Below, piece after piece: positions 958 through 64,000 of a stretch of DNA of 64,000 nt (position 1 is the first letter of the stretch; each line of letters opens with the position of its first letter). The stretch lies in the IMG/VR virus record IMGVR_UViG_3300049595_001870, positions 53,779 to 117,778 of that record; one strand, 5' to 3'. The position numbers and the translations under genes were made by a program. A model generated the notes under the pieces. The model saw only the letters and a list, made by a program, of their open reading frames with translations. It was not told the DNA's origin and did no database searches. The stretch comes from a virus.

Positions 958-973
958 ATCAACGGAGGTGCGT

Positions 974-1723
974 ATGCGACTGGCATATGCACCGGCCAAC
1001 GCCAAGCTCCGCCGTCTTCAGGAGCGTTTGGGCGTCAAGGTCTACTCCTTTGACATGCTGTCAGGAGTGACCTGTCCCGCAGCCAAGGACTGTAAGTCTT
1101 GGGCTGTGGAGTACGGACGCGGCAAACGCAAGATTCAAGACGGGAAGCACACGTTGTTCCGGTGCTTTTCGGCCTCGCAAGAGGCTCAGTACACGGATGT
1201 GTACAAGTTTCGTAAGGCCAACATGGATGCGGCCCTGTCGCTTGCGGCAGAGTCGCCCATGAAGTGTGCCTCGGCTCTGGTTGAGGCTCTGCCTGACCGG
1301 GCAGCGGTGATTCGCATCCATGTGGCTGGGGATTTCAAGATCCTCAACTACTTCGATGCGTGGCTGGAGGTGTGCGAACGCAGGCCCGACCTGCGGCTGT
1401 ATGCCTACACCAAGATGTTGTCGTTCTGGCAGAAGCGGCGGGACATCCTGCCTGCGAATCTGGCCCTGACTGCCAGCAGGGGTGGTCGGTTCGACCATCT
1501 GATCGACAGCGAGGGATTCCGTGAGTCGGTAGTGGTCTACAGCGAGGCCAAGGCCAAACGGCTGCGGCTGGCTATCGACCATGATGACAGCCATGCGTAC
1601 TCGCTCACTGGCGGGTCGTTTGCCCTGCTGATCCACGGCACTCAACCGCCGGGCAGCGAGGCTGGCAAGGCCGTGCGGGCCTTGCGCGGGAAGGGTTCCT
1701 ACAACCGGAAAGTGAAGGTGTGA
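974..1723 (+). CDS. Gp88-like phage protein (radical-SAM-like, GP88 family)
   Basis: TCPAAKDC...CFSA Cys cluster, IRIHVAGDF, LYAYTK motifs; GGAGG RBS places start at ATG 974. Confidence 0.75.
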   Translation: MRLAYAPANAKLRRLQERLGVKVYSFDMLSGVTCPAAKDCKSWAVEYGRGKRKIQDGKHTLFRCFSASQEAQYTDVYKFRKANMDAALSLAAESPMKCASALVEALPDRAAVIRIHVAGDFKILNYFDAWLEVCERRPDLRLYAYTKMLSFWQKRRDILPANLALTASRGGRFDHLIDSEGFRESVVVYSEAKAKRLRLAIDHDDSHAYSLTGGSFALLIHGTQPPGSEAGKAVRALRGKGSYNRKVKV

Positions 1724-1724
1724 C

Positions 1725-1946
1725 ATGCGGACAAGTCTGACCGGCCGCCTTGTGCGTGCGGCCGACGACTTGCGGAGGCTGCGGTCTGATCTGAACAGCC
1801 TGGCCGTGGCACTGCTGACGGATGACAACGGCATATCACAAGAGTCCTACGGACTGCTGCGGTCAGTGTTTGCCCGTGTCGGCGGCATGCCGGCCCTGAA
1901 CGTCGATGCGACGGACGGGCGGTTCTACATTCCGGAGGAGGTGTGA
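1725..1946 (+). CDS. Hypothetical early protein
   Basis: GGTGTGACATG junction, coupled to neighbours. Confidence 0.75.
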   Translation: MRTSLTGRLVRAADDLRRLRSDLNSLAVALLTDDNGISQESYGLLRSVFARVGGMPALNVDATDGRFYIPEEV

Positions 1947-1947
1947 C

Positions 1948-2172
1948 ATGAACAAAGATTTTGGCGAGACAGTCGCCAAGTACTTTTACGGCGAGGGGAA
2001 GTGGGTGTCGGTCTATGCGTGCTACCCAGACATGGAGGCTTACGACAATCGAACGCCGGACTACTGGGATGTGTACGACGAGAACGGAGCATGCCTCAAC
2101 GAGGGTGAGGCGTTCTATGCGATGCCCACTTGGGGCGATGTGCTGAAGTCCTACATCAAGCAGGAGGTGTGA
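1948..2172 (+). CDS. Hypothetical early protein
   Basis: GGAGGTGTGACATG junction; acidic/aromatic 74 aa. Confidence 0.75.
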   Translation: MNKDFGETVAKYFYGEGKWVSVYACYPDMEAYDNRTPDYWDVYDENGACLNEGEAFYAMPTWGDVLKSYIKQEV

Positions 2173-2173
2173 C

Positions 2174-2443
2174 ATGCGGAAGCTGAGCGATGAGCCTTTG
2201 GTCTGGCAGTACGGCCTCCACCGCGTCGTCAATGGCGTACCGCAGTGGCTGTCTGTAGATGGCGATTGGCTGCCTGACTCTAACACCGAAAACTTACGCA
2301 TCCGCAGGTTCCTCTCGCTGGCGGCAGCGAAGCGAGCGTGGGAGGACGAGATGCCGCATGCGCTGGATGCGTGGGCTCGCTCCATTGGTATTTTCCAGGG
2401 GAAGCGAGATGTGACAGAGGCCCTTTATCGCGGGGAGGTGTGA
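2174..2443 (+). CDS. Hypothetical early protein
   Basis: GGAGGTGTGACATG junction. Confidence 0.7.
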   Translation: MRKLSDEPLVWQYGLHRVVNGVPQWLSVDGDWLPDSNTENLRIRRFLSLAAAKRAWEDEMPHALDAWARSIGIFQGKRDVTEALYRGEV

Positions 2444-2444
2444 C

Positions 2445-2720
2445 ATGGTGGCGATTGTGACCAAGTATCACGGCCCGACCAACACGCGGGGTTCCCGTGT
2501 GTCTGCGTCTGCCAACGGGCACCGCGTTGAGGTGACCCATGAGTCTGCTCTGGACTCCGAGGCCAACCATCGCCAGGCATTGCGTGCCCTATGCGACAAG
2601 CTGGGGTGGGATGAGGACAGGTTCTACGGCGGTGCCATGGACGATGGCAGGTGGGCCTGGGTGCCTGTCTTTACCTACGACTGGGAGCAGCGACACAAGG
2701 AGCAAGCCAATGCAAACTGA
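2445..2720 (+). CDS. Conserved-looking phage early protein (IVTKYHGPTNTRGSRV)
   Basis: GGAGGTGTGACATG junction; motif recalled from other phage early regions. Confidence 0.75.
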   Translation: MVAIVTKYHGPTNTRGSRVSASANGHRVEVTHESALDSEANHRQALRALCDKLGWDEDRFYGGAMDDGRWAWVPVFTYDWEQRHKEQANAN

Positions 2721-2931
2721 CCTGTACAAGGGTGTGGACTGGGCCCCGCATGTGCGTGAGTTCTATGCGGAGTGGCTCAGATTCACTGGCCTGCGGGCGG
2801 ATAGTCGCCGGTCTTTCGACCGATTCGTAGCCCTGATGGAGGAACGCATGGGCGACTTCCTGATGGATCAGTGTGCGGACTTTTCTGGGATGGGTCTTAT
2901 CCGGGAGGAGGTGAGCGATGCGACTGCGTGA
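2710..2931 (+). CDS. Hypothetical early protein (MQTDLYKG...)
   Basis: AAGGAG RBS, ATG 2710, overlaps upstream stop. Confidence 0.7.
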   Translation: MQTDLYKGVDWAPHVREFYAEWLRFTGLRADSRRSFDRFVALMEERMGDFLMDQCADFSGMGLIREEVSDATA

Positions 2932-3310
2932 TCGGTTCAATGCCTGGGTCCAGGCCCGGGTGGATGCGGTGCTGCTGCCGCGTGTGCGGCGGTGCGTGCA
3001 GGCTGAGGCCCAGCCTATCGACTTCCAGCGGCTGGCGCTGGAAACGTCCACCTTGCGTGGGTTCAGCAAGGAGGTGGCGGATGCGCTGGAGCTGGACAAC
3101 GACTTCTGCCGGCGGCTGGCAGAGGAGATTCCGGCCAGCGACATCGCATACCACATCGACGCCGAGGAGGTGGCCAAGGAGGTGGAGGTGGACATCTGCG
3201 TGTCCGATGTGGCCGAGAGTCTGGACATGTCGGAGCTGGCCGGGGAGATCGATTACGAGGCGCTGGCGGCGGCGCTCGTTCGCATGGCAGCAAAGGGGGT
3301 GACCAAGTGA
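2918..3310 (+). CDS. Acidic hypothetical early protein with IDxEEVA-like repeats
   Basis: GGAGGTG RBS; coupled. Confidence 0.75.
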   Translation: MRLRDRFNAWVQARVDAVLLPRVRRCVQAEAQPIDFQRLALETSTLRGFSKEVADALELDNDFCRRLAEEIPASDIAYHIDAEEVAKEVEVDICVSDVAESLDMSELAGEIDYEALAAALVRMAAKGVTK

Positions 3311-3507
3311 GACATGTGGAATTCCGCAAGTTGGTGGACGCTGTCATCGAAGCCCACTGCGGGCTGGGGTCCATGGATCTGCCCGACTTCGATCTGTGGA
3401 GCTACTTCGACGAGGACATGACATCCGAAGAGGCGCAGGAGGCGGCGCGTGATGCCGCCATCGACCTGCTGGTGGAAGAGGGCTTTCCGTTTGAGGAGGG
3501 TGCGTGA
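3307..3507 (+). CDS. Acidic hypothetical early protein
   Basis: GTGA overlap; DLPDFDLWSYFDED motif. Confidence 0.7.
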   Translation: MRHVEFRKLVDAVIEAHCGLGSMDLPDFDLWSYFDEDMTSEEAQEAARDAAIDLLVEEGFPFEEGA

Positions 3508-3731
3508 TGCAGAAGTGGGTGGCCCATGCGATTGCGTCTCACGGCCCGTCTCTGGACGAGCGATGGGTTGGTGATGTGACTGCCGGCGTGGCGGGCGATC
3601 TGCCGGCGTTCATTGCGGCAGCGGCGACGGCGGCGCGTGAGTTGGCCGACGAGCAGTTGGCCGAAGAGTTCTTGGATGCCTTGGCGGCAGTCAATATCGA
3701 CCGTGTGTTGGGGAAGACCGTCTTCTACTAG
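3507..3731 (+). CDS. Hypothetical early protein
   Basis: GGAGG RBS, TGATG overlap. Confidence 0.65.
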   Translation: MQKWVAHAIASHGPSLDERWVGDVTAGVAGDLPAFIAAAATAARELADEQLAEEFLDALAAVNIDRVLGKTVFY

Positions 3732-3741
3732 GGGGTGCGTG

Positions 3742-3954
3742 ATGAGCTATCGACCGATGGTGAAGGTGGGCAATGAGTGGGCTGGCAATGGCATTCGCTT
3801 TGCCACCCGGGCAGAGGCCGAGGCTTCCGCCCGTGATCTGTACGGACGATGGACCCTGTGTGTGGATCACCGGGCAGATGAGTCCGATGATCAGGTAAAC
3901 TGTGAGTGGGATTCGTCCCGTGGCAATGTGCATTTGGAGGTGGTCAATGCCTGA
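3742..3954 (+). CDS. Phage early protein (WAGNGIRFATRAEAEA)
   Basis: GGGGGTG RBS; ATG 3742. Confidence 0.7.
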   Translation: MSYRPMVKVGNEWAGNGIRFATRAEAEASARDLYGRWTLCVDHRADESDDQVNCEWDSSRGNVHLEVVNA

Positions 3955-4210
3955 GATTCCAAACATCCCGCAGTCCGTGCGGATATACGTGGCTCCTGTC
4001 GGCACAGTGGACTCCCCTGTTCATGGCTGCATTCCGTTCGTCGTTCGGGCCTACGACAACACCCGCACTGGCGAGGTGATGTGGCGGGGCAGCTACTACC
4101 AGAACGTCAATGGCTTCCCAATGTACGTCGCCGCTAGGCAGGCGGCCGAGCGTGAATGCGGCGTGCGTAACTGGCACATCGTCAACCCAGAGGAGGTGAG
4201 CAGTGCCTAG
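3947..4210 (+). CDS. Hypothetical early protein
   Basis: GGAGGTGGTCAATG junction. Confidence 0.65.
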   Translation: MPEIPNIPQSVRIYVAPVGTVDSPVHGCIPFVVRAYDNTRTGEVMWRGSYYQNVNGFPMYVAARQAAERECGVRNWHIVNPEEVSSA

Positions 4211-4505
4211 GCACAGACGTTCTCGCACCGACTACCCGGCTGGCGTGATTGCCATCTATGACAACTGCGGCAAGACCATCGACCGATACGAGGTGGTGTT
4301 CTCGCCTGCGTCCAGTGATGGGGTGCAGTTCTTTCCCATCCTGTACATGAGCCCCGATCCGTTCCATCCGCAGGGCGTGGGGCAGCATTCCGAAACGCTG
4401 TTCCGCCCGACGCGGATGCCCGATCAGCGCGTGATTGATTGGGCCGATCTCCCTGAACGATGCAAGCAGTGTGTTCTGCAAGACTTGGAGGTGACCAATG
4501 CCTAA
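4203..4505 (+). CDS. Phage early protein (YDNCGKTIDRYEVVF...PFHPQGVGQH)
   Basis: GGAGGTG RBS, GTG start; motif recalled from other phages. Confidence 0.75.
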   Translation: MPRHRRSRTDYPAGVIAIYDNCGKTIDRYEVVFSPASSDGVQFFPILYMSPDPFHPQGVGQHSETLFRPTRMPDQRVIDWADLPERCKQCVLQDLEVTNA

Positions 4506-4713
4506 ACAGCGGCGGCGGTATGCCGTGATCGGCTGGTGTGCCGTCGATGTCCTGGAGCATAGGCCGGGCTGGACCCGCAAGCAGTGCAACGAGTTTCTGG
4601 AGGCCAACGAGGATCACGTCCAGTTGGCGATGATTGAGGCTGGCAATGCGGCGATCAGGGAGTGCCTGCCGCCGGGGAACGATGAGGACACAGAGGAGGT
4701 GGTCAATGCCTAA
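4498..4713 (+). CDS. Hypothetical early protein
   Basis: GGAGGTGACCAATG junction. Confidence 0.7.
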   Translation: MPKQRRRYAVIGWCAVDVLEHRPGWTRKQCNEFLEANEDHVQLAMIEAGNAAIRECLPPGNDEDTEEVVNA

Positions 4714-4957
4714 CCCAAACGTCAGTCAGAGCCACTTCGCCAAGGCTGCTGCCGGCAAGGCGGCGACGTTTTGCGAAGAGGCCAAGAGCGAGGCAAGCCT
4801 AGCCGTTATTGCCCGCATGGTACTGGAGGAGTTCGACACGGCCCCCAAGTCGCAGGAGTACCTAGCCCTCGCGGCTGCGTTCAGCAAGTCGCATGGCAAG
4901 AACGAATGGGTGATAGTGGACGACATTGTCCGTGCGTTCAAATGGTTTCGGAGGTGA
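4706..4957 (+). CDS. Hypothetical early protein
   Basis: GGAGGTGGTCAATG junction. Confidence 0.7.
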   Translation: MPNPNVSQSHFAKAAAGKAATFCEEAKSEASLAVIARMVLEEFDTAPKSQEYLALAAAFSKSHGKNEWVIVDDIVRAFKWFRR

Positions 4958-5675: not shown

Positions 5676-5841
5676 ACTGACCGACGAGCAGGCCGAGGAG
5701 TTGCAGGATGTGCTGGTGTACGAGTCTGACCGCCTGACGTTTGCCATCAAGGACGCTGACCCCAGCGATGCAGACGCTATTGCTACGCGGCACACTGTGT
5801 CTGTCCTGTCCGACATCCTTCACCTACTGGAGATTGCGTGA
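5662..5841 (+). CDS. 59-aa hypothetical early protein (MPTIELTDEQAEEL...)
   Basis: Below ORF-track cutoff; GGAGG RBS; fills gap exactly with TGATG overlap. Confidence 0.7.
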   Translation: MPTIELTDEQAEELQDVLVYESDRLTFAIKDADPSDADAIATRHTVSVLSDILHLLEIA

Positions 5842-6059
5842 TGAAGCCACTGCATATCACTGAGCATGAGGCACGCCAGGAACTGCTAGCCTACGTGGAC
5901 ATCGATGATCTGGCCCTGCTTCTCAGCAAGCTGGCCGTGTATCAGGACCGCACCGTGGTTGTGAAGGGCACCGACAAGGAGAGTTACGCCTGCTGGAATG
6001 GGTACATGAGCGACGAGCGTGGTGATCTGAACTGCTTCAGCGACAAGGAGACTGCCTAA
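5841..6059 (+). CDS. Hypothetical early protein
   Basis: Coupled, GGAG RBS. Confidence 0.65.
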   Translation: MKPLHITEHEARQELLAYVDIDDLALLLSKLAVYQDRTVVVKGTDKESYACWNGYMSDERGDLNCFSDKETA

Positions 6060-16688: not shown

Positions 16689-17368
16689 ACAGGACCATTG
16701 CTCGCCAAGGGCCCTGGCGTGCGTTCAGACGGCCGTTCGCCCTGGACGGGTGTCCACAGGCCGGGGACTGAGATCGGGCCGTACGCCCACTCTGAGGAGC
16801 CGCTGGCGTCGAAGGACGACGACTCCGATCGGTAGACCTCCTCCTGCACCCGGTAGCCACGGGAGCGTGGGTCTGGGCTGTCTCCAACAAAGTACCCATC
16901 CTTCCACGCCACACGGTTTGTCGGCAGGGCCGCCAGCCTGCCCGTCGCCAAGGCCAGTACATGTGCGCACTTGGCCTGCTCGGGGCGGGCCAGCCAGCCC
17001 GGCGCCGACAGTGAGTCGGGAAGCCAATCGACAGTGAACAGGTACTCGCCTGGGATCGGGCCACGCCGCGTGTAGCACACGGCCTCATGCTCCAGCAGGT
17101 AGGCAAAGACCGTCACCACCGGGCGAAATGAAAAACAATCCCAGAGCTGGCAGTTCTCCAATTCCTCAGTCGCTGCGCCCTCACGCAGGGCCAGTGCATG
17201 GATCGGTAGATTGCGGAAGTGCGCGCCGCTCTTGAGCATTACATGAAATGCCAGGGCCCTGGCCGGGTAGCTCTGTATGGCGAATGCGTAGCCCTCCTCC
17301 TGGCCAGGGCAGCCAGTGGTAAAGCTGTTGTCTACCCAGACTCGCAGGTATGGGATGTCAGCGTTCAT
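16673..17368 (-). CDS. Conserved phage hypothetical protein
   Basis: GAHFRNLPIHAL, QLWDCFS, YLFTVDW, ALPTNRV motifs; start MNADIP at 17368. Confidence 0.75.
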   Translation of the reverse strand: MNADIPYLRVWVDNSFTTGCPGQEEGYAFAIQSYPARALAFHVMLKSGAHFRNLPIHALALREGAATEELENCQLWDCFSFRPVVTVFAYLLEHEAVCYTRRGPIPGEYLFTVDWLPDSLSAPGWLARPEQAKCAHVLALATGRLAALPTNRVAWKDGYFVGDSPDPRSRGYRVQEEVYRSESSSFDASGSSEWAYGPISVPGLWTPVQGERPSERTPGPLASNGPVCGAP

Positions 17369-17642
17369 ACGTAATCGGCCGTATTGATCCGTGTTTCGTC
17401 CGCTCCAGCAGTCCGTCGATGACCGCCGCGATCTTGTTGCACTGCACATCGTCCTCGTAGGCGTATATGTCTCGCACTTCCCGCAGGACGGACCGCTCCG
17501 CGTCGGTGAGCCGCAGCCGCCTTATTTCTTCTTGCAGCCATGTGTTCGCCGCCGACAGCCTCGCCGTAGCCATGTGCGTGTTGTGAGAACCAGCGGATGC
17601 AAGAGACGGCTCGGCCGCGTCTCGCGTGTTGTCAGTGTCCAT
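17358..17642 (-). CDS. Hypothetical protein whose N-terminus is encoded by antisense attC-1
   Basis: AGGAG RBS and ATG lie inside attC-1; MDTDNTRDAAEPSLASAGS leader, RLTDAER motif. Confidence 0.7.
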   Translation of the reverse strand: MDTDNTRDAAEPSLASAGSHNTHMATARLSAANTWLQEEIRRLRLTDAERSVLREVRDIYAYEDDVQCNKIAAVIDGLLERTKHGSIRPITYER

Positions 17643-17673
17643 ATCTCGCCGCTCCTGATCCTTGGCGTTCTGT
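17584..17673 (+). mobile_element. attC: attC site 1 (90 bp)
   Basis: R'' TGAGAAC, 5-nt spacer CAGCG, L'' GATGCAAG, L' CCTGATC, 6-nt spacer CTTGGC, R' GTTCTGT; two extrahelical bases. Confidence 0.8.
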
Positions 17674-17675
17674 GG

Positions 17676-17927
17676 CTACTTGCGAGCCTCGCGGATCGCC
17701 TTTGCCATCGCATCTTGGATACGCGGCGGTATCGGCACAGCCTGCGACTGAATCGCCTTCGGCTTCCTGCCGTAGACCAAAGGCCACACTCTCCAGTCGG
17801 CTCTGGTGTCTGCAATCAGCATTCGCGCAACAGCATCGGCGTCCTCTTCGCAGCGAAATATCTCATGGTGGTGAAAACGCTCGCCAACGCGAACCACTGC
17901 ATACGCAACGGGGGTGCGATCACTCAT
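17676..17927 (-). CDS. 83-aa cassette A protein (inverted relative to attC)
   Basis: Fills cassette; stop 3 nt from R'; GGAG RBS. Confidence 0.7.
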   Translation of the reverse strand: MSDRTPVAYAVVRVGERFHHHEIFRCEEDADAVARMLIADTRADWRVWPLVYGRKPKAIQSQAVPIPPRIQDAMAKAIREARK

Positions 17928-17929
17928 GT

Positions 17930-18004
17930 CTATACTCCGTTCGCCACAGAACCAGCGGATGCAAGAGACGGCTCGGCATCGTCCTGCGTGTTGTCATCGC
18001 TCAT
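17930..18004 (-). CDS. 24-aa attC-2-encoded leader peptide MSDDNTQDDAEPSLASAGSVANGV
   Basis: AGGAG-N10-ATG inside attC-2; TAG 2 nt before the ATG of 17676-17927. Confidence 0.5.
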   Translation of the reverse strand: MSDDNTQDDAEPSLASAGSVANGV

Positions 18005-18035
18005 AGTTCGCCGCTCCTGATCCTTGGCGTTCTCA
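17946..18035 (+). mobile_element. attC: attC site 2 (90 bp)
   Basis: R'' ACAGAAC, CAGCG, GATGCAAG ... CCTGATC, CTTGGC, R' GTTCTCA; 30-bp left and 26-bp right arms identical to attC-1. Confidence 0.8.
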
Positions 18036-18283
18036 CGTTGTATCGCCGGTGCCCGGCACGGGTCGCGTCACGGGTTTATCAGTCCCGCCGCTGCCGTGTC
18101 CGCCACCGGGTTCCCCAGTTGCGGAATCTGTTCGGGCTGTCGCCGCCGGCGCGGCGTCATGATTTGTGTCAGAAAAACTCATGCGGTTTTCTTTCGGCGT
18201 GAGAACCACGCGCTGCAGCGGACCCGCGATGGCGTCGGTTGGTTGTGGTTTCGTCAGCGGTCGCGGGCCGCTGATCTTTGGCG
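18030..18283 (+). mobile_element. Gene cassette B (254 bp)
   Basis: Begins in GTTCTCACG; its own R'' CGTGAGAAC is the exact 9-nt complement. Confidence 0.75.
18033..18182 (-). CDS. 49-aa low-complexity cassette B peptide (MSFSDTNHD...GDTT)
   Basis: 3' part of ORF 18033-18443; TGA lies within the antisense of R'; no strong RBS. Confidence 0.4.
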   Translation of the reverse strand: MSFSDTNHDAAPAATARTDSATGEPGGGHGSGGTDKPVTRPVPGTGDTT

Positions 18284-18289
18284 TTCTGT
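18200..18289 (+). mobile_element. attC: attC site 3 (90 bp)
   Basis: R'' TGAGAAC, CACGC, L'' GCTGCAGC, GG[A]CCCGCGA/TCGCGGGCC stem, L' GCTGATC, TTTGGC, R' GTTCTGT. Confidence 0.85.
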
Positions 18290-18292
18290 GGC

Positions 18293-18436
18293 TCACCTCG
18301 TCATCCACATGAGGCCAAGATTCGCTGTGCTGTAGCTCATCCACACCAGAAAGCCAGCCGGCGATCCTCGCCACAACTGTTCGATAGCGACGACGAAGTA
18401 GATGATGGCGACGATGAACACTAGTGGCGCGCTCAT
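18293..18436 (-). CDS. 47-aa two-TM phage membrane protein
   Basis: Below cutoff; MSAPLVFIVAIIYFVVAIEQLWRGSPAGFLVWMSYSTANLGLMWMTR; stop abuts attC-3 R'. Confidence 0.75.
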   Translation of the reverse strand: MSAPLVFIVAIIYFVVAIEQLWRGSPAGFLVWMSYSTANLGLMWMTR

Positions 18437-18451
18437 TCATCACCCCACGTG

Positions 18452-19060
18452 CTAATTAGCTTTGCCTTCGCCATCGCCAGCTCCCTCTCCAGCTTTGCTA
18501 TCCTCTCCCGCAACGTAGCGTTCAACTGTTTCAGTCGCTCCACCTCCCGCTGCGAATGCTCCTGCCTCTCCATCAATCAGTCCCAGCTTGTGACGCGGAT
18601 AAAGAATCTCCAACAACGCGCTTGCCGGCCGTAAGAATTTCTTCGGAGCCTCCAGAATCGGCACCTCATGGCCACGCTCTCGGTCGGTCGTCTTTCCCTC
18701 TTTCCATGAGTCGTCTCTGTCCAAGATCGTCAGCCACACCCATGCCCCGGTCGGCTTGGAAAGAAACACGTAGATCAGATTGATGTGGCTTTCACGCTTC
18801 ATGCCGCGCAAGTCATCGACATACACGGTGTCATACGGAAAGGACTCCGGCCCATCGAACTTCAGCGACCGCTCTTTCACTTCGATCGCCACCACGGCTG
18901 CGGCGTCTGGCGTATCGACATGTCCGGTGCGCTTGCAGTGCCTCTTGGCGACGATCTTGCGACCATGCGCCACCGCGCACCCGATCTTGCGCATCGTTTC
19001 CACCCACTTGCGTTCCGCGCGCTGGCCTTTAGCCAGCGCTACGGAAAATGAGCGCGCCAT
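18452..19060 (-). CDS. PD-(D/E)XK restriction-endonuclease-like protein
   Basis: GQRAE..TPD..IEVKER pattern. Confidence 0.6.
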   Translation of the reverse strand: MARSFSVALAKGQRAERKWVETMRKIGCAVAHGRKIVAKRHCKRTGHVDTPDAAAVVAIEVKERSLKFDGPESFPYDTVYVDDLRGMKRESHINLIYVFLSKPTGAWVWLTILDRDDSWKEGKTTDRERGHEVPILEAPKKFLRPASALLEILYPRHKLGLIDGEAGAFAAGGGATETVERYVAGEDSKAGEGAGDGEGKAN

Positions 19061-19544
19061 TGCGATTGGCTCCGAAGAATTGCCGAATGGCAGGATTCGT
19101 CTGGCAGACATCACGCCCACGGAGTACGCCCATCGCCTGCACCCTGGCGCAGCGATGACGAATCACATCTGGCATCGGATCGGTCTTGGTTATGTGACCG
19201 ACGAACCAGCAAAGCTCCTCCGGGATTGGCTCGGCCTCCTCAAACTCGGCGCGGTGCGCACGCACCTGAAAGCCCCAGCGGGTGGTCCGGCCAAAGATGT
19301 CGCCGATGTCTTCATCCGTGAGAGTCGGATCGTTCATGGCTATGCAGGCCAGGCGCTCGTCGCTCGGGCAGCGACGGCAGTGCAGGTGGATGCGGATGAT
19401 GGACTCAAACGCCTGCTCGGCTTGCTGGCACTGCTCGGCAACTTTTGACACACCCTCACGGTTGATCAGCACGCGGCGAAACACCTCGCGTGCGAAACCC
19501 AAGCAGTGATCCAATCGCCTCTCGCCACGTTCGCTTTTTTGCAC
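19029..19544 (-). CDS. Hypothetical protein, possible HTH (LTDEDIGDIFGRTTRW)
   Basis: AAGGAGG RBS, GTG start. Confidence 0.6.
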   Translation of the reverse strand: MQKSERGERRLDHCLGFAREVFRRVLINREGVSKVAEQCQQAEQAFESIIRIHLHCRRCPSDERLACIAMNDPTLTDEDIGDIFGRTTRWGFQVRAHRAEFEEAEPIPEELCWFVGHITKTDPMPDVIRHRCARVQAMGVLRGRDVCQTNPAIRQFFGANRNGALIFRSAG

Positions 19545-20614: not shown

Positions 20615-21000
20615 CAGAAAGGGATTCCGCCGTCGTCTTCCTCAAACTTTGGCAACGCCTTTGTGGCGGCCGGCTTTGCTGGCGCAGCAGCCTTGGGTGG
20701 CGGCGGCGACATGATCTGCACAGACTGGACGGTGCAGACAAACGCAGACTTCTCCGCGCCGTCCTTGCCAGTCCACTTCTGCTCTTCAATGCGGCCGGTG
20801 AAGGCGACGCGCTGCCCCTTGGTGAGCAAGGCCAGAAGCCCTGCCGGGCACTCCCAATGCTCACAAGTCAGCCAAGTCGTCTGGTCATTCCGGCCGCCGA
20901 TCGCCACGCGATAACGGCTCTTGGTCTTGCCGTTGATGTCCCGGCTCTCTGCGTCACCGCCCAGCCGCCCGGTGAAACAGCACACGTTCATGTCAGCCAT
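20614..21000 (-). CDS. ssb: Single-stranded DNA-binding protein
   Basis: FTGRLGGDAE, VAFTGRIEEQKW, acidic tail DDGGIPF. Confidence 0.92.
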   Translation of the reverse strand: MADMNVCCFTGRLGGDAESRDINGKTKSRYRVAIGGRNDQTTWLTCEHWECPAGLLALLTKGQRVAFTGRIEEQKWTGKDGAEKSAFVCTVQSVQIMSPPPPKAAAPAKPAATKALPKFEEDDGGIPF

Positions 21001-21625
21001 TGACCACCTCCTCGGCAAAAGCCCGCTCGTACGCCTGCTCCGCACGGTGGAGCAGCTCCTGATCGACCTCGCCCCGCTTGGCGAACAAACGGAACTTGTC
21101 CAGCAGCCGCTGCGACAACTCCGCGTTGCGTTCCGCCAACGCCTTGCGCAGTTCGTTCTCCGTCGCAGCCGCCTCCAGCACGGCCCGTGGGTTCTTCGCC
21201 GCCGGCTTCACTTCTTGCGGCTGAGACACGGCGTTGGCGTCGTCGTCGTCGCAGCCACTCAGGGCCCCGGTGAGGCAGATCAGCAGCATGCGATGGGCGT
21301 AGGTCAGCGCGCTTTTAAAGCCCTGCATGTCCTGCTTGGAGAAAAACAGCGGTACCGACGCATTGATCTCCTCGCCGCTCCTGTGCCGCAGGCACCCCTC
21401 CGCAAACCACAGGCCGTCCACCAGCCGAGGATGGACGGTCATCGGAGCGAAGCCGTTGGCCGTCAGCGCCTCGGAGATGGCCGCATCGATGTCGCCAACC
21501 GTGCTATACGGAGTACCGCGTGGGTTGGACGGACCTTTGAAAAACGTGTTCAGCCCGCTCTGCTTGGGCTGCCGGAACTGCTGCTTGGCCTTGGCCAGGG
21601 CAGCGACGATTGCCTTCTCCTCCAT
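20993..21625 (-). CDS. erf: ERF-family ssDNA annealing protein
   Basis: KQSGLNTFFK..YSTVGDI..QGFKSALTYAHR..DDDAN. Confidence 0.85.
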   Translation of the reverse strand: MEEKAIVAALAKAKQQFRQPKQSGLNTFFKGPSNPRGTPYSTVGDIDAAISEALTANGFAPMTVHPRLVDGLWFAEGCLRHRSGEEINASVPLFFSKQDMQGFKSALTYAHRMLLICLTGALSGCDDDDANAVSQPQEVKPAAKNPRAVLEAAATENELRKALAERNAELSQRLLDKFRLFAKRGEVDQELLHRAEQAYERAFAEEVVNG

Positions 21626-22473
21626 CAGTACACCTCCTCCTTGTTGCGAACCCACGCCGGAATCTCCAGCTCCCTGATCTCCCCGTGATCCAGCGGCAGG
21701 TACTCACCTGTCGCCCTCCGCAGACGAATCAACTCCATCGTTGACAGCATTCGCTCGCCGCACTCAGCGACGTAGTCATGCGGCAGGTAGTACACATGGC
21801 ATGCGTACGGAGCCGCCGTCTGGACAAACACAAACGGCATCCGGAACGGACCCATTCCGATGGCCATGGCGCCGTTGACATACAGCCATTCCTGCTCGCC
21901 GTAGCCGTAGTCAAAGACCGAGCGATAGAGCTGGTCCCACTTGGCACTGGTGGTTTTTAGATCCCACCACCTGTCCTGGCAGCAGCCGTCCGGACGAACC
22001 TTCAGTCGGTGGCCCTCAAGATCAAAGAACACGCTGACCTGCGTCTCGGTGGTGTTCTCCACCAGATCGCGGGCGGCGCTGTTGGCCATGAGCGAGTCCA
22101 GCATCTTGCTGTACTGCTCGCACTGATCCTGCGTGCAGACGATCACGCCGATCTGCTCGGCCTCCCACGCCTTGTAGGCGTTGGTGCTGCGCGATCCGTT
22201 GGACCCCAGCACCTCTTTCGGCGGGACGCGGATCTGCTCCGCAAGGGTCTTGCCCTCGCAGACGCCTTGGACGATCTGATCGAACTCGCTGCCTCGCCTA
22301 GTGGCAGAGTTGCCTGAGAAGAGCGAGTTGCCTGCGTCCATCCACTGCTGTACCTCGCCGCCACCTTTGGCCACCGCCGAGATGAATGAGCGGCTGTCGA
22401 ATCCCTTCAGTCGGTGGTATTCTTCCCCCGGCATGCCGATGACCTTAGTCGGCAGCTTGTCAATGCTGTGCAT
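21625..22473 (-). CDS. RecE/exonuclease VIII-like PD-(D/E)XK nuclease (DUF3799-like)
   Basis: EEYH..SRS, KVRPD..WDLKTT, YGEQ..Y, FVFVQT. Confidence 0.85.
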   Translation of the reverse strand: MHSIDKLPTKVIGMPGEEYHRLKGFDSRSFISAVAKGGGEVQQWMDAGNSLFSGNSATRRGSEFDQIVQGVCEGKTLAEQIRVPPKEVLGSNGSRSTNAYKAWEAEQIGVIVCTQDQCEQYSKMLDSLMANSAARDLVENTTETQVSVFFDLEGHRLKVRPDGCCQDRWWDLKTTSAKWDQLYRSVFDYGYGEQEWLYVNGAMAIGMGPFRMPFVFVQTAAPYACHVYYLPHDYVAECGERMLSTMELIRLRRATGEYLPLDHGEIRELEIPAWVRNKEEVY

Positions 22474-22765: not shown

Positions 22766-23590
22766 ATGACGATCGCGGAGCTTGCCAACAAATACTGCAC
22801 CAGAGTCGGAGCCAAGGCCAGCTACGCCCACCAGTTCCGTGTCCTGACCAGACGCCTGCCTTGGCAGGTCGCCCAACTGTCCGAGGACCGAATCGACGCC
22901 TACCTGACCGATGCCCTGGGACATCTCGCGCCCTCCACCGTGGCCAAGCACAGAAGGATGCTGGCCTGCCTCCTCCAGTTCGCACGTAGCGAACGCCTCC
23001 TGAACAAACGCACAGTACCACGCCCCCTGCGAAGGGTCAAGTGCCCCCCGCCCAATCCGCGGGCGTGGAGCCACGCGGACATCCGTGCGCTGCTGTCGGT
23101 AGCCGAGCATCTGAAGGGCGGTACGCGGCAATGCGCGTACTCGCTGATTGTGCCGGCGTGGATACTGGCTGCGTACAGCACAGGGCTGCGGCGCCAGGAT
23201 CTGCTGGATCTGCGACATGACGCCATCCGTGGGTCTAGAGCAGCTGTTCGTCAGGCCAAAACTGGCTGGCCGCATGTCGTCAACCTTGATCCAGCCTCCA
23301 TTGCTGCGATCAGACGACTCCCCCGAAAAGGACCGCGCGTGTTTGGCGATCTGATTTCGGCGGTGCAGATCGTAAGGGTAATGCGGAGACTTGTCAAGCA
23401 AGCCGGCCTGGACGGCACCGGCAAATGGCTCAGACGTAGTGGCGCAACGTATTGCGAGGCCGCGGGATACGACGCAAGCGGCCATCTCGGGCACAAGTCG
23501 CCGGGCATGAAGATCCACTACATCGACCGGCTGCTGCTCGCGGAGATCAGGCCAGACGAGCCGCGCGTGCCGCCGGTGCTAGCTACCTAG
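22766..23590 (+). CDS. Tyrosine recombinase/integrase
   Basis: STGLRRQDL (R), QAKTG (K), WLRRSGAT (HxxR variant), LGHKS (H), IHY (Y). Confidence 0.88.
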   Translation: MTIAELANKYCTRVGAKASYAHQFRVLTRRLPWQVAQLSEDRIDAYLTDALGHLAPSTVAKHRRMLACLLQFARSERLLNKRTVPRPLRRVKCPPPNPRAWSHADIRALLSVAEHLKGGTRQCAYSLIVPAWILAAYSTGLRRQDLLDLRHDAIRGSRAAVRQAKTGWPHVVNLDPASIAAIRRLPRKGPRVFGDLISAVQIVRVMRRLVKQAGLDGTGKWLRRSGATYCEAAGYDASGHLGHKSPGMKIHYIDRLLLAEIRPDEPRVPPVLAT

Positions 23591-54338: not shown

Positions 54339-55801
54339 CAGCGCTGATCCTCCAGCAAACCGTCCGTCACCATTCCCCCACCAACGGCAGCGCCGATGCC
54401 CTGCGTCAGGATGCGGCGGCGCATTTCGTCAGACATGATGTAGCGACGGGCTGGGGCGCGCACGGGAGGGGCTATCTTTTCTTGGGCGGCCAAGTGACGC
54501 AGCCGGCTGTGGTTGTTCTGCAATGCCGTTACCTCGTCAGCCTGACGCATCAGGCCCGGCATGAACTGATCCACAAGCGTGTTGGCGGCTGGAGTCGGAT
54601 AGCCGTTTTCAACTGCCTGCGTAACCAAATGATTTCGCAGCCGGACGGCATGCTTGGTCGGGTCGATGCCAACTTGCAGCGCATGGATCACATCTTCCAC
54701 AAGCCCGGCCGACGATGTCTGATCCTTCCCCCAGCCGCTCCCCACGTATCCATCAGCATGCACTATCAGATCGTTTAGCGCGTCCTCCGCTGCCTGCCGC
54801 GTTTCCGGCCACGCATAGCCCTTGCGAACGACATCTTGCCCTACCGCATCTGGCGTCAGTCCGCCCATCTTCCTGCCCAGTCGCTCCAGCGCCCCCGGAA
54901 CTACCTTCCCGTAGAAGTGTTCGTAGTTCTCAATGTTGCCGCCGACCTTGTCAGCGATGGCTCTTGGTGAGGCGACTTCGATGGCCCGATGCCCCTTGCG
55001 CGCGGCCTCTAGGGCGAGGCGTTTGATGAGGAGGTCGGACCAAGAGTCTTCTAGGGGGAAGGGGATGCCAGTCTTGGGCGATACCACCACATTGCCGCCC
55101 TCGTCCCAGTCAACGGCGTGGCCCGCCTCCAGCATGGCATCCGCGTAGTCGGAATCTGATTCACTTGGTAGCTGCTGCCTTGGGGGCAAAGAGCCTTCCC
55201 GTGCCTTTCGGTTGTGAATCCCCAAGTCCGATTGGAGTTCATTGATCCGCAGGGCATCGCCGTGGGTGTCGAAGCGTGCGTGGGCGACTGCGTCGGCGTT
55301 TTCGTTTGCCCAGTGATTGTCAAACTTGCGCTCGGCCGCGAAGGGCTGAATGAGCAGCAGCTCTGTGTAGTCCTTGCCGCCCTGTCCATACGATTGATAA
55401 GTCGGCGGCCCAACAGGCTCTCCTTGCCCCAAAGGGTCGCTCCGCATAAAACCACCAGTCGGATCATCCAAGTCGGCCCACGCGGATGACATTGGGGCAT
55501 TGCGCCGCACTTGCTCCGCGTGCGTATACACAGGGCTGCGTTCTTGCACCCTGGCCAAGAGTTCTTCCCTCGGCACCACATCCCTGCCGAAGGTCAACGA
55601 ATCTAGGTCGGTTGCCTTCAGCTCCCACCCAGGCACGCCGTCTTTGTAGCGCTTCAGCAGCCCGGGGAGTTCCTGCACACGGACGTTCTCTGGCATGGCC
55701 TCAATGGCACGCTCCAGGCGGGAGTAAATGCCTGGATCCGGGTTGTAGCCAAGCAGTCCGGCGATCTGGCGGCCGGCGGCGTCGTAACGTCCGGGCATCA
55801 C
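54338..55801 (-). CDS. Polyvalent-protein-like module (YSRLE..Y.ELLL..AHAR..ELQSD)
   Basis: Motif order resembles a module of large phage polyvalent proteins. Confidence 0.55.
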   Translation of the reverse strand: MMPGRYDAAGRQIAGLLGYNPDPGIYSRLERAIEAMPENVRVQELPGLLKRYKDGVPGWELKATDLDSLTFGRDVVPREELLARVQERSPVYTHAEQVRRNAPMSSAWADLDDPTGGFMRSDPLGQGEPVGPPTYQSYGQGGKDYTELLLIQPFAAERKFDNHWANENADAVAHARFDTHGDALRINELQSDLGIHNRKAREGSLPPRQQLPSESDSDYADAMLEAGHAVDWDEGGNVVVSPKTGIPFPLEDSWSDLLIKRLALEAARKGHRAIEVASPRAIADKVGGNIENYEHFYGKVVPGALERLGRKMGGLTPDAVGQDVVRKGYAWPETRQAAEDALNDLIVHADGYVGSGWGKDQTSSAGLVEDVIHALQVGIDPTKHAVRLRNHLVTQAVENGYPTPAANTLVDQFMPGLMRQADEVTALQNNHSRLRHLAAQEKIAPPVRAPARRYIMSDEMRRRILTQGIGAAVGGGMVTDGLLEDQR

Positions 55802-56070
55802 CAGCTCCAGTTACATGACCACCAGCCGGGCGTCAGCTTGTCCGTCTTCTCGTCGCAATTGTGGCGGGCTTTGAAGTTGGCCCGGCGGCCATCATCACCA
55901 TGACCACCGCCAGACCCGTCCCGGTAGTGGCCCATGGACGCATCGCCGAATCGCACCAGCCGCTCTTCGTCCCCGACCTTGGCGCGGACGACGAACTTCT
56001 TCCCGCCCTGCGTATCCCGGACGGGACGGTTGGGAATCAGCTTGCGGATCTTGTCGCCTTCTTCGTCCAT
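55798..56070 (-). CDS. Conserved small protein (KKFVV..VRFGD..RRANFKARHNC..WWSC)
   Basis: Motif family recalled from phages/giant viruses. Confidence 0.75.
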   Translation of the reverse strand: MDEEGDKIRKLIPNRPVRDTQGGKKFVVRAKVGDEERLVRFGDASMGHYRDGSGGGHGDDGRRANFKARHNCDEKTDKLTPGWWSCNWSW

Positions 56071-56768
56071 CACTCGTCGTCCTGCATAAGTTCCGTCGCC
56101 CACCAAGGCGATGTTGCTGCGGCCCCAAGCTCTCCAGCGCGTCGGAGAGTGCGCGGATCGTTGTAGATGGCCTGGGCGCGGCCGATCATGTCGGCGATGC
56201 GCGCTGCCGATTTGTCGCCCTCGTTGGCATAGTAGTTGGCATACGCAGCCCACGGCACTCCTATGACCCGATCGCCGCCGGCGCGGGTGGCCAAAGCCTC
56301 ATCGAAGACACGGTTAAGGCCGTGCGGCAATCTGGCTGTCAACTGAACGCCGATCGGCAGTCGGGGGTGATCGGGCGAAGGATTTGGCAATTCCAAGTAG
56401 CGTTTCGCCCCTTCGTTTATTGCGTGCATGACCTCATGCCGCCGTATTCTTCGGTCGCCCTGTGGGTACACAACCGTCCCAAGGACGCCCTGTCGCCGTT
56501 CATCATACTGGTCAAAGTAGTCTTCCAGTTTACGGTCGGGAACAAACATGCCGATGGCGTCTTTGGCTTTCATAGAATATGGGATGTGTTCAACATCGGT
56601 GGCTGTAAACCTGGCCGCGGTTGACCTCGGATAAGCGTCCAAGTACGTTCCGTCCGGCATGTATGGCAAATCGACGGTCGCTCTCCGCATGGCCAGCATC
56701 GCCCTGACCCGCTCGTTCCGGGCCGGGCCCACTCCCAGACGCGCGATCAGGTCATCGATCTTGCCCAT
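56070..56768 (-). CDS. Putative zincin-like metallopeptidase
   Basis: RHEVMH (HExxH) with downstream DEALA. Confidence 0.55.
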   Translation of the reverse strand: MGKIDDLIARLGVGPARNERVRAMLAMRRATVDLPYMPDGTYLDAYPRSTAARFTATDVEHIPYSMKAKDAIGMFVPDRKLEDYFDQYDERRQGVLGTVVYPQGDRRIRRHEVMHAINEGAKRYLELPNPSPDHPRLPIGVQLTARLPHGLNRVFDEALATRAGGDRVIGVPWAAYANYYANEGDKSAARIADMIGRAQAIYNDPRTLRRAGELGAAATSPWWATELMQDDE

Positions 56769-56810
56769 GGACGCATCCAGTCCTCCAGCTCGTCCTCGTC
56801 CTCCCAGTCC

Positions 56811-57191
56811 TCATCCAAGGACGATACTGCTGCCGCGCGGGACGACGGTGACGGGAGATTCCGCCTGTTGCAGCCGCCGGAGAAGGGCGTCAATCCGCAT
56901 CTGCTCCATCTCTTTCTCATGCTGCATCCTCCGCGCCTCTCGGAGTTGACTGACACGCGAGTCGTTTTCCCTGCGGAAGGCGGCCGTGGTCTTGTCGGCC
57001 ATGTCCTTCAACAGTTCAGCCTGCTGGGCCGGGCCGGGCAGGGGAAACATTGGTGCTGCCATCTGTGGTTTCGCCATCCTTCTTGGGCGCGGCCGTGCGG
57101 CCGGCTGCCGCGGATTGCCTAACGCATCGTTGGGTTCGTCTTCCATCTCCTGCCCCAGCAACGGCAGGAGTTCGTCTGGAATGCCAAGCAT
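56811..57191 (-). CDS. Hypothetical protein
   Basis: TAGGAG RBS places start at MLGIP. Confidence 0.6.
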   Translation of the reverse strand: MLGIPDELLPLLGQEMEDEPNDALGNPRQPAARPRPRRMAKPQMAAPMFPLPGPAQQAELLKDMADKTTAAFRRENDSRVSQLREARRMQHEKEMEQMRIDALLRRLQQAESPVTVVPRGSSIVLG

Positions 57192-57201
57192 GGGCGTTCT
57201 C

Positions 57202-57618
57202 CTATGAACCATTGCCCTTGCGGGCGCGCCAGCACGCCAGACGCACCAGGGCCTTGGCCGCCAGCCGGCTAAAAGGCAGCTTTCGCTTTTGGGCCGTCTC
57301 TTCCATCACGGCGACGATCTCGTCTGTGTGGTTCAGCGACTCCTGGCCCCACTTGTTCATTTTGTTGGCCATAGCGTTGCACTTGCAGGTCTTGCTGGCG
57401 TGGATCCCGATTGTGGCCAGGAGCTTCTTCAGTTCCGTGCCCGGCCCAACATCTGGCGGAGCCGACACGGCACGGCGGCGTCCTGGGTAGCTGCTGTGCT
57501 TTTCATCGATCGTCCACTGGTCGCCGTCCTTGGCGACGACGCACGGCATCGCATCGGCTAGCGAATATCCGCGCTGGCGGCAGCGGGCCTCAAAGAATTT
57601 GCGATGGCAAGTGATCAC
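57202..57618 (-). CDS. Cys-containing phage protein (GPGTELKKLL..CKC..MN.WG)
   Basis: GTGA overlap with upstream gene. Confidence 0.65.
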   Translation of the reverse strand: MITCHRKFFEARCRQRGYSLADAMPCVVAKDGDQWTIDEKHSSYPGRRRAVSAPPDVGPGTELKKLLATIGIHASKTCKCNAMANKMNKWGQESLNHTDEIVAVMEETAQKRKLPFSRLAAKALVRLACWRARKGNGS

Positions 57619-58337
57619 GGGAGCGGGTTGAACTCCAGGCCGTCCTGGCTGAGCAGCTCGTCCAAGAATTCGTTCTGCTGCTCGCAGAAGTCGCTGTATC
57701 CGCTGATGTCCGCCGATCCAATAGGGACCAGCGTCAGCGTGCCGTCGCAATCCACTATGCGATGCTGCCGGGTGGAGCTGGCGATTTGCGGTGAGGTTAT
57801 GTCGCCGCCGCCTACCCAGCCTATAAGGACCAGAGAAACCGTGACGGTGATCTTGTAGTCTTCGTCAGGATCATCGGCGCAATCGCTGACAAATGTCAGC
57901 AAGTGCTCCATCAGCGACACGGGGCACGGGGAATCAAAGCAGATGTTGGGGTTGTCAACGTCAATGCAAGACAGCTCGCCGAAGTCGTCCGAGGTCAGGT
58001 TTCCTTCACCGCTCGGCGATATGCCGTTGTTGTAGATCAGTTGTTCTTCCAAATCCGGCGGGTCACCGCAGGTGTACGGATCGCATCCCACGCACTCGCC
58101 GTCTTCGCATGTCTCCCCCACTTCGCAGCAATACGGATCCTCCGAAGAACCGCAGCACGCTTGGCCAGAGGGGCAACAGATTTTCTCTTGGCAGCAGTAC
58201 TCGCCCTCGGGGCAGCACACCTGCTCCTCGCCGGAGCCACAGCAGACCCGAGGCTCCTTGCAGCACGCCTTCTCGCCCGGCGGACCACAGCACTCACCGT
58301 TCACCGCCAAGCAGCAGCAGTCGCAGCAGCTCATCAC
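57615..58337 (-). CDS. Cys-rich protein with periodic CC pairs
   Basis: CC every 6-9 residues over the first ~90 aa; TAGGAG RBS. Confidence 0.75.
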   Translation of the reverse strand: MMSCCDCCCLAVNGECCGPPGEKACCKEPRVCCGSGEEQVCCPEGEYCCQEKICCPSGQACCGSSEDPYCCEVGETCEDGECVGCDPYTCGDPPDLEEQLIYNNGISPSGEGNLTSDDFGELSCIDVDNPNICFDSPCPVSLMEHLLTFVSDCADDPDEDYKITVTVSLVLIGWVGGGDITSPQIASSTRQHRIVDCDGTLTLVPIGSADISGYSDFCEQQNEFLDELLSQDGLEFNPLP

Positions 58338-58611
58338 ACGCTCCTACAAGCCATTGCCCCCGCAGCGTGGCCAAAGCCCCTGCCCCGAGCTTCGTTTTTA
58401 CCTTCTTGCTTGTATAGGTGGGGGATGGCCTCGTCACGCCCACGCTTCGCCCCTCTGGCGTTGTGGCGCGGCCACGCTATTACCGGGCCTTTGACGCTAA
58501 CGGGCTCCTGGCGTCACGCAGGAGCGTCACAGGGGCATGTGGTGTTTCGCTGGGAGAAACACGTGGGGGCCGGAGGTGGTGAAAAATCCGGGAGGGGGAT
58601 TGAAGAAAAAG

Positions 58612-58685
58612 GCGTCGCAAAAAAGGGGGGGGCAGGGTGGGGTATGATCGACCGTCCGGCCGATCATAACACCTTACCCTGCCCC
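58612..58685 (-). terminator. Long hairpin plus U-tract after the leftward 58774 gene
   Basis: GGGGCAGGGT/ACCCTGCCCC and ATGATCG/CGATCAT stems; TTTTTT follows on minus strand. Confidence 0.55.
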
Positions 58686-60110: not shown

Positions 60111-60126
60111 TTCCACGGAGGTGCGT

Positions 60127-63800: not shown

Positions 63801-64000
63801 GCGGCGATCAGGGAGTGCCTGCCGCCGGGGAACGATGAGGACACAGAGGAGGTGGTCAATGCCTAACCCAAACGTCAGTCAGAGCCACTTCGCCAAGGCT
63901 GCTGCCGGCAAGGCGGCGACGTTTTGCGAAGAGGCCAAGAGCGAGGCAAGCCTAGCCGTTATTGCCCGCATGGTACTGGAGGAGTTCGACACGGCCCCCA
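60127..64000 (+). repeat. Copy 2 of long direct repeat; repeats the early ORFs of 974-4847
   Basis: Offset 59153; window ends at equivalent of 4847. Confidence 0.97.

Follow-up and report, generated by a model that had tools for sequence, protein, structure and literature searches.

Probable integron-type gene cassettes, with inverted genes starting inside the attC-type site, in an uncultured phage genome

Phages of the T4 type carry promoter-stem-loop 'mobile regulatory cassettes', repeated structured elements located 5′ of small early genes, for which a modular shuffling has been proposed. Integrons are known as devices with which bacteria capture genes, and phages can also carry attC sites, the recombination sites of integron gene cassettes. 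Clusters of this type were first reported from phages in 2023, as rare and small: Qi et al. 2023 described 17 CALINs (groups of attC sites that lack an integron integrase) in sequenced phages, the majority having few sites; the integrase IntI1 recombined five of the six phage sites tested, the cargo included DNA methyltransferases, and a host IntI acting in trans was proposed (PMC9892861). The subject of the present work is a stretch of viral DNA of 64,000 nt (positions 53,779 to 117,778 of the IMG/VR record IMGVR_UViG_3300049595_001870; hereafter the window), in which an earlier reading of the sequence alone had pointed out an array of three attC-like elements. Such arrays had been thought to be rarely described in phages, which is right, although phage CALINs had already been published (Qi et al. 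2023, PMC9892861). What is new here is not the phage CALIN as a concept but the arrangement of its genes, which are carried by the bottom strand and begin within the attC loop. We consider it probable that the three elements are integron-type attC sites, that the DNA between successive G|TT positions represents gene cassettes and that the array is a phage CALIN located in an early/replication operon.

In attC sites the extrahelical bases are carried by the L′′ arm. The base within L′′ is usually a G (bottom strand), the most distant one being a conserved T; a 6-bp stem separates the extrahelical bases, and the unpaired central spacer (UCS) is of 5–6 nt (PMC5027507). The AAC/GTT triplet is the sole stretch conserved in all attC sites, and IntI cleaves at the A-C step of AAC in the bottom-strand R′ (PMC5027507).

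The three elements of the window (Table 1) are found at the positions proposed by the sequence-only reading. Their cores, from AGAAC to GTTCT, are 86 nt long, which is within the 57–141 bp range of attC sites, and the 90-nt borders first given to them include 2 nt more on each side. The window's minus strand was taken as the attC bottom strand. The geometry is as described: AGAAC, a 5-nt spacer, an 8-nt L′′, a 7-nt L′, a 6-nt spacer and GTTCT are all present, with an extra G as the fourth base of L′′, a 6-bp stem ending the L box and then an unpaired A. This distal A is a T on the bottom strand, matching the published attC rule, and the terminal structure is variable. In elements 1 and 2 an A-C mismatch of the top strand becomes a G-T pair on the bottom strand. 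Site 3 has only its ends in common with sites 1 and 2 and its stem is its own. The flanks are exactly reciprocal over 10 nt in one case (GTTCTGTGGC, 17667–17676, with GCCACAGAAC, 17943–17952) and over 9 nt in the other (GTTCTCACG, 18029–18037, with CGTGAGAAC, 18198–18206). The 17-mer at the 3′ end of the elements occurs three times against 0.32 expected. An Rfam scan of 16500–19500 with E values up to 1 returned nothing.

Table 1. Features of the array and of its surroundings (positions in the window)
Feature	Position	Strand	Remarks
attC-type site 1 (R′′ AGAAC ... R′ GTTCT)	17586-17671	+	covariance model R1, 98.8 bits
attC-type site 2, 88% identical to site 1	17948-18033	+	R1, 96.9 bits
attC-type site 3, different compensated stem, loop without start codon	18202-18287	+	R1, 76.2 bits
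Cassette 2, 362 nt: begins with the TT in R′ of site 1, ends with the G in R′ of site 2; ORF83 and site 2	17668-18029		bounded by 10-nt inverted repeat GTTCTGTGGC/GCCACAGAAC
Cassette 3, 254 nt: small ORF and site 3	18030-18283		bounded by 9-nt inverted repeat GTTCTCACG/CGTGAGAAC
ORF94, cassette 1 gene; AGGAG and ATG in site 1 loop, frame passes through L′′/R′′	17358-17642	-
ORF83, cassette 2 gene	17676-17927	-
24-codon leader ORF: start in site 2 loop, stop 2 nt before ORF83 ATG	17930-18004	-	frame is that of the family leaders
Small ORF, 49 codons, cassette 3; own ATG, TGA stop inside site 2 R′ flank	18033-18182	-
GTTCA, tentative proximal border of the array	17363-17367	+	tentative; conserved peptide MNADIPY
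ERF-family annealing protein and PDDEXK (DUF3799) exonuclease, recombination module	20993-22473	-
Xer-like tyrosine recombinase, 274 aa, 4.5 kb from the array	22766-23590	+	context; not an IntI
ORF, open reading frame.

Related copies were collected from IMG/VR with a 17-mer scan (about 18 copies), then with a hidden Markov model (HMM) and then with a covariance model, R1, built from 51 phage copies and including no bacterial sequence. A second pattern scan gave at least 120 stretches, and a fixed-geometry detector gave at least 322 copies in at least 122 loci, five AT-rich false positives being among them. Copies never occur on both strands of one locus (at least 122 loci), and in the HMM and R1 searches they form arrays of 2 to 16 copies on the same strand. 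The sites constitute a large and apparently undescribed family in uncultured freshwater phages. In the 51-sequence alignment 93.8% of the cells pair, against 33–52% when the partners are slid, and double-sided changes occur in 108 cells against 37 in shuffles. AAC and GTT are invariant, and 50–51 of the 51 copies retain the pairs 15-100, 16-99 and 17-98. These observations demonstrate a common structure, composed of a 5-bp R box (AGAAC/GTTCT), an unpaired spacer of 5/6 nt, 3 bp followed by an unpaired G, then a covarying 6-bp helix and, beyond it, an unpaired A, a further helix and a loop of 3 to about 40 nt. The covariation supports the attC architecture of the elements.

Members of the family fall into two size classes, long forms of 81–88 nt and short forms of 44–54 nt with a minimal loop, the latter being below the usual attC minimum of 57 nt. 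The first extrahelical base (top strand) is a G in 265 of 271 copies and the second an A in 259, and the spacers are of 5 nt on the R′′-L′′ arm and 6 nt on the L′-R′ arm in all copies of the fixed-geometry detector. R′ has C or A at position 4 and T or G at position 5. That the bottom strand folds better, as proposed from the window elements, is true of the family: it is the more stable strand in 71% of the 271 copies (mean −0.69 kcal/mol, Wilcoxon p about 4e-21), the difference being larger, 2.1 kcal/mol, in attC sites of mobile integrons (PMC5027507). As a separate observation, cassette ends belong to a few extended classes of 13–17 nt common to unrelated genes (for example GTTCTGTGGCTACTTG, GTTCTCACTTCGTCCG and GTTCTCAGCCTAG; loci such as L162, L166 and L121). 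These are longer than the R box needs and each includes the stop codon.

The family model also recognises genuine attC sites on the expected strand, which is the reverse of the test proposed by the sequence-only reading (an attC covariance model applied to the window elements). On the class 1 integron of pCTX-M3 (dfrA12-gcuF-aadA2) the three attC sites are the top three hits of R1 in 10 kb (27.5, 18.9 and 7.6 bits), all full length and on the ORF strand, and in a chromosomal integron of the Cyanobium family R1 finds 14 sites on the same strand behind intI. A second class 1 integron, considered as an additional test, turned out to carry an array identical to the first. Besides this recognition of attC sites by the family model, the phage elements share with integron attC sites the AAC/GTT R box, the 5/6-nt spacer, the 8/7-nt L box with an extra base at the fourth position, the 6-bp stem, after which comes a second extra base (a T in the bottom strand), and a terminal structure that varies. 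With integron cassettes they share same-strand arrays, an R′′ that complements the R′ at the far end of the cassette and a diverse and mostly unknown cargo.

The reciprocity of the flanks, interpreted from the window alone as the trace of cassette insertion at G/TT, is general. Over 198 junctions the complementarity between the R′ of one site and the R′′ of the following one extends for a mean run of 4.71 nt beyond GTT/AAC and reaches at least 4 nt in 78% of cases, against a mean of 1.9 nt and 15–16% reaching at least 4 nt in three controls (own-site, reversed and random pairs). Core changes covary across the gene (GTTAT/ATAAC 28 times, GTTCG/CGAAC seven times and GTTAG/CTAAC four times). The outer R-box pairs of a given site show no compensation among themselves in the 51-sequence alignment, which is expected if everything after the G of R′ is part of the next cassette. 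The canonical integron of the Cyanobium family shows the same reciprocity, over 8–10 nt.

The cassette unit used here (G|TT to G|TT) is based on homology breakpoints throughout the family. Left ends of homology blocks accumulate at −1/0 of the G of GTT, and the homology of a 276-nt body present in four contigs with different neighbours stops precisely behind the AAC of the gene strand (GTT when read on the top strand). The body is shared together with its right-hand site, as a GTT-to-GTT unit, 10–13 times and with its left site three times. From the breakpoints at GTT and the sharing of the right site, the unit is TT ... gene ... R′′-site-G, as in integrons, and the cassette footprint is thereby demonstrated. 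So is a modular shuffling: the 198 intervals represent 127 protein families, and bodies that are 90–99% identical sit between different sites and never beside the same neighbouring gene. A search of related contigs for different or reordered cassettes, suggested with the initial claim, thus gave near-identical bodies among different neighbours, as well as a different cassette content in the closest relative of the window phage (see below). Contigs with window-type sites and cassettes have none of the window's flanking genes in common, so that the cassettes cross phage lineages.

The cassette genes are located on the bottom strand, opposite to the orientation of ordinary cassettes. The loop of nearly all long sites contains a ribosome-binding site (RBS) and an ATG, and an ORF runs from there in one fixed frame through the 3′ arm. 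This ORF specifies a leader peptide with the pattern ..PSxASxGS, then enters the cassette body and ends where the next site is reached. A given body can be found behind more than one leader type, the joint being at GS| (GGTTCT), and we infer that the leaders are translated. Each cassette would thus be a complete translation unit for a phage operon, since the RBS, the ATG and the first 14–20 codons sit in the attC loop and 3′ arm. In the Cyanobium-family integron examined, the ORFs are on the top strand as usual, and the inversion therefore marks the phage-type cassettes. To our knowledge this inverted layout, with a gene start within the recombination site, has not been described for integron cassettes.

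In the window, the sequence-only reading had assigned one small ORF to each interval. Small ORFs are indeed present, but on the minus strand, and their starts are within the elements or beside them. Site 1 carries in its loop the RBS and ATG of ORF94 on the opposite strand, and the body of ORF94 recurs in five other arrays behind at least three leader types. ORF83 has no family match and no relative among the collected arrays. A frame of 136 codons (18033–18443, minus strand) traverses site 3 in frame with the small ORF of cassette 3; it is probably due to chance in GC-rich DNA, and if it were real site 3 would be translated. Elsewhere in the family the cargo that can be named includes C5, N6 and Dam methyltransferases, Mom, HNH endonucleases, DUF551 and HTH proteins, while most of the 75 cargo proteins scanned have no Pfam match.

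We are inclined, by a small margin of confidence, to regard these elements as a phage-adapted class of integron cassettes, with inverted genes whose RBS, ATG and first 14–20 codons lie within the attC hairpin in a fixed frame. Shuffling by an integrase would then move ready-to-translate units through phage early operons, and the class, with its DNA methyltransferases and Mom-type anti-restriction genes, would be exchanged among many lineages of uncultured freshwater phages and the integrons in the chromosomes of their picocyanobacterial hosts.

The elements might instead be mainly hairpins acting at the RNA level or at gene starts to control translation, and be shuffled by homologous recombination (Erf and exonuclease) at conserved boxes of 15–20 nt, site-specific recombination playing no part. 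The strand that folds is also the mRNA strand, the RBS is placed in the stem or the loop and the ATG in the loop, with the fixed-frame ORF passing through the 3′ arm of nearly all long copies, genes for an ERF annealing protein and a PDDEXK exonuclease are present in the phage, and exchanges of the body alone exist. Homologous exchange nevertheless leaves unexplained the gene-specific inverted repeats of 7–10 nt at both ends of the genes, the breakpoints at GTT, the recognition by R1 of attC sites from unrelated integrons and the retention of the same structure by short copies with no start codon. We consider this explanation very improbable. The cassettes of T4-type phages resemble the present family in being structured repeats at the 5′ ends of small early genes; they differ in acting by homologous recombination between the repeats, and we know of no report of gene-specific inverted repeats at their ends or of an attC geometry.

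As had been claimed, there is no intI in the phage genome: the whole 117.8-kb record has no match to TIGR02249 and its only tyrosine recombinases are Xer-like. Three sites without a nearby intI correspond to a CALIN (two or more attC sites, no intI); neither an IntI in the record nor a definable attI, which would make a complete integron, was found. According to the attC reading, the bottom strand (the window's minus strand) would fold into a hairpin presenting the R box, the unpaired spacer and an L box that two flipped-out bases flank. An integrase of the IntI type would cut the bottom-strand R′ at the A-C step of AAC, and cassettes would leave as circles and insert at another site. The IntI would come from the host and act in trans on the phage sites, a host-supplied enzyme being presumed because the phage is devoid of IntI.

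A search with IntI1 (tblastn) over 117 array loci matched a single one, L156, on a contig of an assembly labelled Cyanobium sp. FGCU52. The IntI-bearing contig G006:C39 is chromosomal (it includes ABC transporter, OEP, HlyD and lipoyl synthase genes) and its integrase scores 457 bits against a TIGR02249 cut-off of 265. This IntI is followed by an array, all on one strand, of generic attC sites (31.5, 21.5 and 17.8 bits) and, among them, three of the phage type (98.6, 64.9 and 50.1 bits with R1) with the polarity expected for IntI. One of its cassettes has 92% identity over 359 nt with the viral contig L089, and a second has 88% identity with several contigs of viral origin. The co-occurrence of the site family with IntI in a bacterium is thereby demonstrated. 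R1 finds no sites in the 6.9 kb of the second IntI contig of this genome (C66).

Among 151 sampled genomes of the Cyanobium family, an IntI above the cut-off is present in 37 and R1 hits (E value of 1e-6 or better) in 12, which makes a host IntI acting in trans plausible. The IntI is presumably supplied by the host, and picocyanobacteria of the Cyanobium family are the best lead for a candidate host group. A metagenome-assembled genome (MAG) with 22 sites holds a terminase 70% identical to that of the window, and its site-bearing contigs are for this reason taken to be binned phage DNA. In searches of GenBank phages (tblastn), the matches to the window's terminase, from a Pelagibacter phage and an uncultured phage, are only 23–27% identical, so that no host can be deduced from it.

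Some further features of these chromosomal integrons were noted. In L290 (G006:C39; 9903–10991 and 13060–15730) and L292 (G095:C6), intI shares its strand with the attC top strands, an 'inverted integrase' layout, and AT-poor phage-type cassettes adjoin AT-rich ones (about 40–47% GC). Immediately after the intI stop of L290 (10992–11140) there are two copies of GGTGGTTCACGGAC, the first inside a perfect palindrome, which could be a terminator or part of an attI region.

An enzyme other than IntI, the phage's own small Xer-like tyrosine recombinase, might also be imagined to use the sites, which would make the array an integron-like system run by the phage, and such a recombinase (274–288 aa) is encoded in the window and in three larger related records. 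In a few contigs (L191, L202, L204 and L268) a homologue lies only 92–1100 nt from the array. The adjacency test did not favour it, however: the distance to the array is 4.5 kb in the window and 11–16 kb in the three related records, side and orientation are variable, and a homologue adjoins the array in only a few of the 117 loci. The divergent phage in the first half of the record has an Xer-like recombinase and no element. In addition, the same site family is found behind a true IntI with the polarity expected for it, and the site geometry fits the known requirements of IntI. We therefore judge the Xer-like recombinase an unlikely enzyme for the array; in the window phage it is probably a lysogeny integrase. 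It adjoins the ERF/PDDEXK module, in divergent orientation.

Every part of the attC/CALIN proposal that could be examined has held: the covariation, the cross-recognition by R1, the footprint, the array linked to IntI and the lack of an IntI in the phage. A number of observations weigh against it. In single-sequence DNA folding, elements 1 and 2 fold no better than shuffles (z +0.7 to −0.8) and only element 3 stands out from the shuffles (z −2.3); single-copy folding being unconvincing for the first two, the case for attC rests on comparison. The core departs from the consensus RYYYAAC/GTTRRRY: R′ is GTTCT in the window (GTTCTGT and GTTCTCA) and GTTCT, GTTAT, GTTCG or GTTAG in the family, only the triplet being kept, and the proximal extrahelical base of the bottom strand is a C instead of the usual G. 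Of roughly 24 shared bodies that are informative, about 11 are flanked on both sides by different sites, the body alone being shared. This needs either a second crossover in the conserved L′′/R′′ stretch or homologous exchange, and there is some extra exchange in this stretch besides the movement of units. The element was not found in the GenBank phage collection (blastn with the 2.6-kb region and with one element), and thus in no cultured phage there, a further difference from the CALINs of sequenced phages, and some of the short array-bearing IMG/VR contigs could be bacterial integron fragments misfiled as viral. It is from the sequences that we infer the action of IntI on the phage copies, the host group that would supply it and activity in this phage.

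Within the window itself, the proximal border of cassette 1 (ORF94) is imperfect: GTTCA, which shares bases with the likely ATG (17366–17368, minus strand) of a conserved nuclease-like gene (listed as 16673–17449), complements the R′′ flank of site 1 only in part. Two of the three cassettes, those of ORF83 and the small ORF, are singletons among the collected arrays. These traits, the small number of sites (three) and the lack of IntI in the record would also suit a relic, captured from a host integron or another phage, kept for its genes and no longer recombining here. All three sites nevertheless retain every structural feature and score like the best members of the family, the flank repeats are perfect over 9–10 nt, and the cassette content differs at the same locus in L006, which makes a relic improbable.

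L006 is the closest relative by flanking genes; its proteins are 55–59% identical to those of the window, too distant for a cassette-precise comparison, and in addition to its different cassette it has a degenerate site. In the lineage of the two phages this locus seems to serve as a standing slot for cassettes. At 5810–5900, L006 has one short attC with a 9-nt reciprocal flank and, beside it, an apparently decayed site ending in GTTCTGTGGCTAC.

Considered as integron-type attC sites, the elements resemble the phage CALINs of Qi et al. in having at least two sites, no integrase and DNA methyltransferase cargo. They differ in forming one homogeneous family, whose arrays have as many as 16 sites and which is found in more than 100 contigs of uncultured viruses, in having cassettes in common with a chromosomal integron and in their inverted genes with the start codon in the site. 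We found no paper on integron cassettes in cyanophages. That more than 100 viral contigs with unrelated backbones carry one attC family, in arrays reaching 16 sites and with cassettes also present in a chromosomal integron with its own integrase, suggests that integron recombination is a routine route by which some phages gain and swap accessory genes, several of them anti-restriction genes, and that phages and host integrons draw from one cassette pool. The inverted layout raises the questions of how a cassette is expressed without an integron promoter and of how a coding sequence and a structured recombination site can be superposed.

The IMG/VR record is 117,778 bp long and the window is its second half. 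An exact repeat of 3,886 bp occurs with an offset of 59,153 bp (window 961–4846 and 60114–63999; record 54740–58625 and 113893–117778), from which the window is taken to be one circular or permuted 59.2-kb genome of a phage. A different but related phage occupies the record's first 54.7 kb, with only a few short stretches in common with the window phage, and the whole looks like a chimeric or tandem assembly. No element occurs in these 54.7 kb, so that the divergent phage provides no empty-site comparison.

The window phage has terminase, portal and tail genes. All genes surrounding the array are on the minus strand, and its neighbours encode a DUF1376 primosomal protein, the ERF annealing protein, the PDDEXK exonuclease, a nuclease-like protein and two HNH endonucleases. 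The genes of the latter overlap and are adjacent (15208–16114, minus strand), downstream of the array. Between them and the array are the nuclease-like gene, which matches a PHROG family labelled 'ferredoxin', and an ORF of 200 aa. The phage also encodes a subtilase (Peptidase_S8, 173 bits) at 12745–13683 on the minus strand.

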